From Escherichia coli (GTDB lineage Bacteria > Pseudomonadota > Gammaproteobacteria > Enterobacterales > Enterobacteriaceae): a DNA stretch of 64,000 bases. The translations under genes were made by a program, and so were the position numbers. The DNA is taken from the NCBI RefSeq assembly GCF_003334785.1, contig NZ_QOWV01000003.1. One strand, given 5' to 3'. Under the pieces are notes generated by a model. That model made no database searches. It was not told the origin of the DNA and saw only the letters and a program-made list of their open reading frames with translations. Positions 18,192 through 20,543 of the stretch are shown piece after piece; the stretch's first letter is position 1, and each line of letters opens with the position of its first letter.

Positions 18192-18737
18192 ATGAGTGCC
18201 AATGAAAACAACCTGATTTGGATCGATCTTGAGATGACCGGTCTGGATCCCGAGCGCGATCGCATTATTGAGATTGCCACGCTGGTGACCGATGCCAACC
18301 TGAATATTCTGGCAGAAGGGCCGACCATTGCAGTACACCAGTCTGATGAACAGCTGGCGCTGATGGATGACTGGAACGTGCGCACCCATACCGCCAGCGG
18401 GCTGGTAGAGCGCGTGAAAGCGAGCACGATGGGCGATCGGGAAGCTGAACTGGCAACGCTCGAATTTTTAAAACAGTGGGTGCCTGCGGGAAAATCGCCG
18501 ATTTGCGGTAACAGCATCGGTCAGGACCGTCGTTTCCTGTTTAAATACATGCCGGAGCTGGAAGCCTACTTCCACTACCGTTATCTCGATGTCAGCACCC
18601 TGAAAGAGCTGGCGCGCCGCTGGAAGCCGGAAATTCTGGATGGTTTTACCAAGCAGGGGACGCATCAGGCGATGGATGATATCCGTGAATCGGTGGCGGA
18701 GCTGGCTTACTACCGCGAGCATTTTATCAAGCTGTAA
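18192..18737 (+). CDS. orn: Oligoribonuclease (181 aa)
   Basis: Track ORF trimmed to the ATG at 18192 ([29 protein letters not shown]...); DEDDh exonuclease motifs. Confidence 0.95.
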
Positions 18738-18862
18738 AATTTTTCCTGGTCACGTAAGCGCCGGAATCCACTTGCGGCGGCGTGATTTTGACGCTAAATT
18801 GAACGTCTTGCTGATAATTTCAGCACTTGAGATAAAAACGCAAAAAAAACTTTTTTGGGGGG

Positions 18863-18890
18863 TTGCAGAGGGAAAGATTTCTCGTATAAT
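18863..18890 (+). promoter_or_regulatory. Sigma-70 promoter of the tRNA-Gly operon (-35 TTGCAG, 16-bp spacer, -10 TATAAT)
   Basis: Near-consensus hexamers about 60 bp upstream of the first tRNA, followed by a GC-rich discriminator (gcgcctccc). Confidence 0.6.
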
Positions 18891-18947
18891 GCGCCTCCCG
18901 TAACGACGCAGAAATGCGAAAATTACGAAAGCAAAATTAAGTAGTAC

Positions 18948-19023
<76 letters not shown>

Positions 19024-19058
19024 AAATTTGAAAGTGCTGTAAGGCACAGACCACCCAA

Positions 19059-19134
<76 letters not shown>

Positions 19135-19149
19135 AATTCTTCTCTCAAT

Positions 19150-19402
19150 AAAATATCCACAGCGACGCGATGCGTTATTGCTGGTTTTTGTTGTCTCTGA
19201 CAAACTCTTGTAAACAGAGTTATCCACAGCCTCAGGCTGTAATCTTAATTTCAAAGAAACTTCGCACGGTGAATAGTATTTTTTTAACCTATTGATAGAT
19301 AAGTTAAAAATTAAGATTCCGTTTTGTCGAGTCGATCACTTGACGATTTTATTCGTCTTGAATTGCAATGCGTTTTTATTTTTATTCACAAGCTGTGGAT
19401 GA
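19150..19402. other. datA: DnaA-box cluster with an IHF-like site, consistent with the datA DnaA-inactivation locus
   Basis: 9-mers ATATCCACA (19153-19161), TTATCCACA (19220-19228), TTATTCACA (19382-19390) and, on the other strand, TGTGGATGA (19394-19402); IHF-consensus match TATCAAtaggTTA on the minus strand at 19285-19297. K-12 datA maps at about 94.7 min, which I recall as being next to glyVXY. Confidence 0.55.
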
Positions 19403-19403
19403 A

Positions 19404-20541
19404 TCAGGCGTCACGCGGTAACCCTTTTTCAATCACCCGAACCAGACGCTGTTTTTTCGGCAATTGCACTTCGACTATGCACGCATTTCGTCTCTCTATT
19501 TGCTGCGCAATCGCCCACGCTATGTGCTCATCGAGAAGTGGGTGCTCACCTTTACGACTTTCCAGCGCTGTCAAAATCGTTTCATCCCAAGGGGCATTGC
19601 CTAATGCTACGGCGATATTACGCAGCCAACGCAGGTGACCAATACGACGAATCGCCGATCCTTCCGTGACTTTTAAAAACTTCTCTTCGCTCCAGGCGAA
19701 TAACTCAATGAGTTCCGGTGCGTGTAGCGGCTTACGCGGGCTGAAATCCTCTTCTGTGGTGAGTTGTGAATAGCGATTCCACGGGCAGATAAGCTGGCAG
19801 TCATCGCAACCGTAAATACGGTTTCCCATTAACGGTCGCAACTCTTCCGGGATCGCCCCTTCAAGTTCGATGGTGAGATAAGAGATACAGCGGCGAGCAT
19901 CGACGGTATATGGCTCGACGATGGCACCGGTCGGGCAAATCGTCATACAGGCCACGCATTTGCCGCATCCTTCCTCGACTGGTTGATCCACGGGCAGCGG
20001 AATATCGACCAGCAATTCGCCTAAAAAGAAGAACGAACCGGCCTCGCGATTGAGGATAAGTGAGTGCTTACCTGTCCAGCCGAGCCCAGCTTTTTCAGCT
20101 AACGGGCGCTCGAGAATAGGCGCAGAATCGACAAACGGTCTAAAATTCAGCGAAACACAATGTTGCTGAATCATCTCGCCCAGCTTTTTGAGTCGGTTGC
20201 GCAGAAGTTTGTGATAGTCACGGCCCAGCGCATAACGGCTAACATAGCCGAGTTTGGGGTTTTTCAGCGTGCTGGCAAATGCGGCGTTAGCAGGAAGGTA
20301 ATTCATCCGCACGCTGATCACGCGCAGCGTACCGGGCAATAACTCATGAGGGCGAGCGCGCAGCATACCGTGACGTGCCATCCAGTCCATTTCGCCGTGG
20401 TATTGTTTGTCCAGCCATGCTTGCAGTTTGGGCTCGGACTCGCTGAGATCGGTATCGGTAATACCTACCTGCTGAAAGCCCAGTTCCAGCCCCCACTGTT
20501 TAATTTTTTGCGCTAACTGATTGAGATCGAGGGGCTCTGAC

Positions 20542-20543
<2 letters not shown>
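19404..20543 (-). CDS. queG: Epoxyqueuosine reductase QueG (379 aa; cobalamin and 4Fe-4S)
   Basis: Track ORF trimmed to MSEPLDLNQLAQKIKQWGLELGF...; two ferredoxin-like Cys motifs (CGKCVACMTICP, CDDCQLICPWN). Confidence 0.9.

Follow-up and report, generated by a model that had tools for sequence, protein, structure and literature searches.

A cluster of DnaA boxes around an IHF site in Escherichia coli is almost certainly the known datA locus

The cluster of DnaA boxes at positions 19100-19480 of the window (the whole 64-kb stretch of Escherichia coli DNA that was analyzed) is almost certainly datA, the already known DDAH locus of this species. The region aligns with nucleotides 4392624-4393004 of E. 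coli K-12 MG1655 at 100% identity over 381 bp, and this stretch covers the 3' end of glyY, the intergenic region and the adjoining part of queG. The initial annotation had called the cluster a probable datA and had named alignment to the published datA region as the way to check it. The identity with the MG1655 glyY-queG interval, published mutagenesis primers that map exactly onto the elements, and an IHF-binding site (IBS) equal to the published one all bear this proposal out, and no sequence feature at 19100-19480 speaks against it. The observations made here are the identity of the sequence, the positions of the elements, their non-random clustering and the conservation of their layout.

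Genomic setting

The surroundings of the cluster are those of K-12. Positions 1-53086 of the window are collinear with MG1655 4373413-4426610 at 99.2-99.97% identity (BLAST), and the gene order rsgA, orn, tRNA-Gly, (yjeV), queG, nnr is the same in both. Minimal datA has been placed at 94.7 min, in the intergenic region downstream of glyV-X-Y and adjoining queG (PMC10950094, PMC5742627), and the cluster described here lies in that tRNA-Gly/queG interval. The initial annotation had put datA next to glyVXY. The adjacency at 94.7 min is right, but two tRNA-Gly genes are found here, not three. It had also described the cluster as abutting the 3' end of queG, which is the case: queG, the gene for epoxyqueuosine reductase, occupies 19404-20543 on the minus strand (identified by its translation and by tblastn orthologues of 73-98% identity), and its stop codon (19404-19406, minus strand) lies 1 bp beyond the last box of the cluster, box 4.

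The MG1655 annotation also carries a 17-aa open reading frame, yjeV, at 19368-19421 on the plus strand, with the product MRFYFYSQAVDESGVTR. This frame extends over boxes 3 and 4 and across the stop codon of queG, and its ATG is not conserved outside Escherichia in the cross-genus alignment. It is probably not a real gene but an annotation artefact over a DNA element.

Farther along the window, between rplI and ytfB, about 9.4 kb (53087-62525) are without an MG1655 counterpart and replace yjfZ/ytfA. The genes of this segment in a near-identical strain encode a TetR regulator, a 3-ketoacyl-ACP reductase, a sugar-phosphate isomerase, a CoA transferase, an FAD oxidoreductase and an MFS transporter, and include an enoyl-CoA hydratase pseudogene. 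The segment looks like an accessory metabolic cluster.

DnaA boxes and the IHF-binding site

DnaA boxes were scored throughout the 64-kb window by their mismatches to TTATNCACA, and were numbered according to the reviews and the primer sequences of PMC10950094. The scan recovered all four 9-mers with zero or one mismatch that had been listed initially, the last two of them convergent. Box 1 (19153-19161, plus strand, ATATCCACA) has one mismatch. Box 2 (19220-19228, plus strand, TTATCCACA) and box 3 (19382-19390, plus strand, TTATTCACA) have none and are the sole perfect matches to TTATNCACA in the whole window; both are classed as high-affinity, essential boxes. Box 4 (19394-19402, minus strand, TCATCCACA), with one mismatch, converges on box 3 and is separated from it by 3 bp.

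A further site, TTGTAAACA at 19208-19216 on the plus strand, has two mismatches, lies 3 bp upstream of box 2 and is the only box of at most two mismatches that adjoins it. A low-affinity box 7 beside box 2 has been described in PMC5835720, and this site is most probably that essential box. Box 3 is oriented as are boxes 7 and 2. Another one-mismatch box, CTATTCACA at 19765-19773 on the minus strand inside queG, may be the site called "box 5" in the original datA fragment of 1 kb. We infer the assignments of boxes 7, 3, 4 and 5 from the reviews, the spacing and the orientation, that of box 4 from its order and orientation. A literature search for further named low-affinity datA boxes (6 and 8) returned nothing relevant.

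A single IBS is found between boxes 2 and 3, at 19285-19297 on the minus strand. Its sequence, TATCAATAGGTTA, matches WATCAANNNNTTR exactly, as do only two other sites in the 64-kb window, and agrees in every base with the datA IHF site given for MG1655 in Suppl. Fig. S11 of PMC4585315. The IHF site proposed between the boxes by the initial annotation is thus an exact consensus match and the published datA IBS. The gaps of 56 nt between box 2 and the IBS and of 84 nt between the IBS and box 3 are the same as in MG1655, so that box 3 stands in its native orientation and spacing relative to the IBS.

The primers of PMC10950094 place several of these elements to the base. Primer subDnaAbox2_R starts at 19229 and the genomic portion of subDnaAbox2_L reaches to 19219, so the nine substituted bases are exactly 19220-19228. 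The ChdatAsubIBS primer aligns with 19265-19291 and 19298-19333; the bases that it substitutes, 19292-19297, form the TATCAA core of the IBS. The published primers for read-through RNA at the IBS map to 19215-19342. The terminator-deletion primers, whose product "also loses DnaA box 1", flank roughly 19152-19178.

The essential parts of datA are boxes 7, 2 and 3 and one IBS, with box 4 being stimulatory (PMC10950094, PMC5742627, PMC10380432, PMC5835720). Box 4 stimulates hydrolysis in vitro and is non-essential in vivo (PMC5742627, PMC10950094), and box 1, which is overlapped by the terminator TglyV-X-Y, is dispensable for hydrolysis (PMC10950094). The set of four boxes initially taken to define the locus therefore holds for boxes 2 and 3; box 7 had been missed, box 1 is dispensable and box 4 only stimulates. 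The published minimal datA is 183 bp long (PMC5742627). The interval from box 7 through box 3 (19208-19390, plus strand) has the same length of 183 bp and is taken as the functional core.

Comparison with chance

It might be argued that DnaA-box-like 9-mers had simply come together by chance in an AT-rich intergenic region. Across the window, 52 boxes with at most one mismatch were found where about 47 are expected, so the window has no general enrichment, and four or more such boxes within 250 bp occurred in 8 of 300 dinucleotide shuffles (about 3%). Judged solely by the number of its boxes, the cluster stands out only modestly. Its composition is another matter. Of 1500 dinucleotide shuffles, 18 had two perfect boxes within 250 bp and 34 had an exact IHF site flanked by boxes of at most one mismatch; none had both. 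The region is, moreover, identical to an experimentally characterized locus, and its layout is kept across at least 17 genera while the intervening spacers diverge. The MG1655 identity, the cross-genus layout and the shuffles refute a chance cluster, to which we give practically no credence.

The initial annotation had suggested a scan for local enrichment and had stated that a similar box density throughout the window would speak against datA. This is not the case: the highest local density, four boxes in 250 bp, occurs solely at datA, and the next best is three. Three boxes of at most one mismatch per 250 bp are found at only two other spots, 53926-54071 and 62601-62642. The boxes there all have one mismatch and no IHF site between them, and these groups are within chance expectation.

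The tRNA-Gly operon and transcription towards datA

Two tandem tRNA-Gly(GCC) genes lie upstream of the cluster on the plus strand, at 18948-19023 (ARAGORN; Rfam tRNA, 69 bits) and at 19059-19134 (ARAGORN, Rfam). MG1655 has three in this place, glyV, glyX and glyY, and the BLAST comparison puts the difference at one repeat unit of about 111 bp, absent here. The two-copy arrangement was matched end to end in 626 of 5426 complete E. coli genomes. In the Rfam search of the region just the two tRNAs scored above threshold. A sub-threshold match to YrlA (Y RNA-like) spanned both tRNAs (18973-19111, 40 bits against a gathering score of 69) and is most likely an artefact of the tRNA-like module of that model.

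The promoter PglyV-X-Y is located at 18863-18890 on the plus strand (TTGCAG, 16 nt, TATAAT). It equals the published deletion exactly, since the genomic parts of the primers deltaPgly1_L and deltaPgly1_R map to 18840-18862 and 18891-18913 (PMC10950094). A generic consensus promoter scan of 18700-19500 found no sigma-70 site; PglyV-X-Y was missed because its -35 hexamer matches the consensus at only three of six positions. With one repeat unit fewer, the promoter is about 111 bp closer to datA than in K-12. This distance and the number of tRNA-Gly genes are the differences from K-12 datA, whereas boxes 1, 7, 2, 3 and 4, the IHF site, all spacings and every base from the last tRNA-Gly gene to the inside of queG are the same.

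The operon ends in the terminator or attenuator hairpin TglyV-X-Y (19146-19193, plus strand; folding energy of the RNA -14.3 kcal/mol, z = -2.3), in which the stem is followed by UUUUU and box 1 is located in the 5' arm. Two more segments, 19226-19240 and 19324-19346, were flagged as terminator-like hairpins. The second of these is no more stable than its shuffles (z = -1.2) and was assigned no role.

The position of box 1 inside a terminator raises the question of whether the element serves transcription, as a roadblock or attenuator that halts read-through from the tRNA-Gly genes antisense into queG, its effect on DnaA being a by-product. Read-through is lowered by IHF bound to the IBS, by DnaA on box 2 and by the terminator (PMC10950094), and the element lies between convergent transcription units in every genus examined. 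However, the initiation of replication is disturbed when datA is lost, control has been published as running from transcription to the IHF binding that serves DDAH, and an ordinary terminator would suffice to protect queG. A primarily transcriptional role is highly improbable, and control of DnaA remains the preferred function of the locus.

Proposed mechanism of DnaA inactivation

The following mechanism is taken from the literature on the identical K-12 sequence, from which all datA biochemistry is extended to this strain. ATP-DnaA would bind the high-affinity boxes 2 and 3 and, cooperatively, the low-affinity box 7, all three of which point in the same direction. After initiation, IHF would occupy its site between boxes 2 and 3 and bend the DNA sharply. 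The bend would join the two groups of DnaA molecules into one head-to-tail oligomer, in which the bound ATP is hydrolyzed and inactive ADP-DnaA is released catalytically (DDAH). The pool of active initiator would then drop, and premature re-initiation would be prevented. Box 4 would aid the assembly, box 1 would be dispensable, and negative supercoiling would favor DDAH.

The timing of the process would depend on the occupancy of the IHF site. Read-through from PglyV-X-Y over the leaky terminator would keep IHF off the site before initiation, and bound IHF, together with DnaA at box 2, would in turn block the read-through transcription. Some DnaA would also be titrated by datA.

In vitro DDAH activity that depends on IHF and on the spacing of the boxes has been reported for the identical K-12 sequence, as have, for K-12, the post-initiation binding of IHF and the repression of untimely initiation in vivo. 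Experiments in which datA was relocated are cited in PMC4585315.

The locus was discovered through titration and named for it, and the "DnaA titration" model regards datA as a passive sink that binds many DnaA molecules with no catalyzed hydrolysis of ATP. Indeed, datA titrates DnaA directly, and point mutations in box 2 or the IBS lower this titration without abolishing it (PMC5835720). Nevertheless, the phenotype of the full deletion is reproduced by point mutations in any one of the IBS, box 2 and box 7 (PMC5835720, PMC5742627, PMC10950094), and catalytic hydrolysis of DnaA-ATP by datA with IHF has been reported (PMC5742627, PMC10950094, PMC5835720). The strict spacing and orientation of the boxes around the IHF bend would not be needed for simple titration. 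It is very unlikely that the locus is a passive sink, and catalytic inactivation of DnaA is the reading retained here.

Relation to oriC, DARS2 and other DnaA-box clusters

The arrangement of a box, an IHF site and more boxes gives datA a superficial likeness to oriC. The left DnaA-oligomerization region of oriC (R1, an IHF site, R5M and further boxes) similarly combines a high-affinity box, an IHF bend and same-direction boxes that form a head-to-tail ATP-DnaA oligomer (PMC5742627). The outcome differs, being ATP hydrolysis and inactivation of DnaA at datA and unwinding at oriC, and IHF binds datA after initiation but oriC before it. This likeness might suggest that the cluster is a cryptic or secondary replication origin resembling the left half of oriC. 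However, datA has no duplex-unwinding element: a search for the 13-mer GATCTNTTNTTTT with up to two mismatches gave no match between 17409 and 25688, so that the nearest lies more than 1.7 kb away. Furthermore, datA represses initiation according to the literature. An oriC-type origin was accordingly rejected, and the probability of a cryptic origin is negligible.

DARS2 is likewise a non-coding cluster of DnaA boxes gated by IHF binding that is timed by the cell cycle. Its effect is opposite to that of datA, consisting in the release of ADP and the regeneration of ATP-DnaA; it needs Fis, and its boxes are arranged otherwise.

The clusters of Bacillus subtilis and Streptomyces coelicolor act mainly by titration; they are not known to be related to datA in sequence or to depend on IHF. 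They share with datA extra-origin DnaA boxes that repress untimely initiation, and in PMC10950094, where they are cited, they are termed just "analogous to datA".

Conservation of the layout

All 5426 complete E. coli genomes contain a 271-bp datA region (median of one copy, maximum of two places), and in 5423 of them its identity is 95% or more. In 24 of the 25 matches listed, the region lies beside queG. In a sample of diverged E. coli strains the substitutions are mainly in the spacers; one of them affects the IHF site, at an unconstrained (N) position. The plasmid collection contains matches as well, all of them in non-mobilizable records of 0.37-4.9 Mb that are most likely chromosomal sequence filed as plasmid; on plasmids of ordinary size in that collection no datA was found.

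The complete genome of E. coli P276M (NZ_CP044293.1; locus L003, 2725-2800) has a divergent patch of about 90 bp equivalent to window positions ~19360-19450. The patch changes the essential box 3 to TTATTTTGG, weakens box 4 and alters the last ~10 residues of QueG. Either datA is naturally defective in this strain or the patch reflects a local assembly error.

Beyond the species, the pattern TTATCCACA, N41-71, YAANNNNTTGATW, N69-99, TTATNCACA was sought in one genome each from 100,044 species. At least 120 loci were found, with about 50 from Enterobacterales among the matches listed. These represent at least 17 genera: Escherichia, Enterobacter, Cedecea, Buttiauxella, Dryocola, Mixta, Pantoea, Tatumella, Serratia, Rahnella, Rouxiella, Hafnia, Edwardsiella, Photorhabdus, Xenorhabdus, Providencia and Morganella. 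At every listed Enterobacterales locus with a detected queG, the gene follows 17-53 bp downstream and is encoded on the opposite strand; the two loci of Tatumella are among those where it was not detected. The listed Enterobacterales loci with flanking sequence have one to three tRNA-Gly(GCC) genes upstream, so that the copy number of these genes varies from 1 to 3 across the listed loci of the order.

The search pattern itself accounts for the conservation of box 2, the IBS and box 3 among these loci, but not for that of the gaps between them. Across the listed Enterobacterales loci the gaps measure 55-58 and 82-86 nt, although 41-71 and 69-99 were allowed, and the 56 and 84 nt of the present locus lie inside these ranges. 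The position and spacing of box 1 and box 7 are also conserved although the pattern left them free. At the position of box 1, most other Enterobacterales genera have TTATCCACA (TTATCCACAG), and the genera share an ACAGAG/C tail at that of box 7. Conservation of the box 4 core, TGTGGA, is confined to Enterobacteriaceae and Erwiniaceae.

The scan also returned a cluster of box, IHF site and box between hemE and priA in a Sutterella sp. MAG (locus L121, 10106-10293). This locus and similar ones (L026, L042, L044, L061 and L101), which come from Sutterella and related Burkholderiales genomes, have several perfect TTATCCACA boxes with fixed gaps of 59 and 86 nt, and could be oriC or a datA-like regulator.

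A constrained spacer between the IBS and box 3

Conservation over 18 genera is unevenly distributed among the spacers. In the spacer between the IBS and box 3 (19298-19381), 19 of 84 columns are at least 80% conserved, as compared with 1 of 56 between box 2 and the IBS, a spacer essentially free of constraint, and none of 46 between boxes 1 and 7. The conserved blocks lie at 19358-19381 and consist of TTGA (19358-61), AA (19367-68) and TTTTT (19373-77). A GATC-CACTTG motif at ~19334-42 recurs by eye in an alignment of 21 sequences; in the 18-genus count it falls under the 80% cut-off, save for the TT at 19340-41.

The blocks do not resemble DnaA boxes. A counterpart of box 7, lying 2-3 bp in front of box 3, was looked for by eye, and the sequence there has 6-7 mismatches to a DnaA box; the conserved T-run is therefore no DnaA box. 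No protein-site name for the blocks was found in the accessible datA literature.

An "unidentified factor" is needed for the timely release of IHF (PMC10950094), and the blocks could be its binding site. Alternatively, they could provide a required intrinsic bend. The variation between two and three tRNA-Gly copies could, for its part, tune the read-through transcription that reaches datA. This view of the blocks and of the tRNA copy number is a speculation that we consider rather unlikely. If the blocks are a factor site or a bend, datA would have an additional, unnamed functional component.

Significance

At the level of sequence, recognizing datA in this strain is nothing biologically new, the region being identical to the reference. 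It does show that a reading of raw sequence can correctly recover a functional non-coding element. Modest leads for the specialist are the order-wide conservation of the spacing, the constrained right-hand spacer and the strain-variable copy number of the upstream tRNA genes. The locus they concern belongs to the four systems known to determine whether DnaA is in its ATP or ADP state and thereby the once-per-cycle timing of replication in E. coli.
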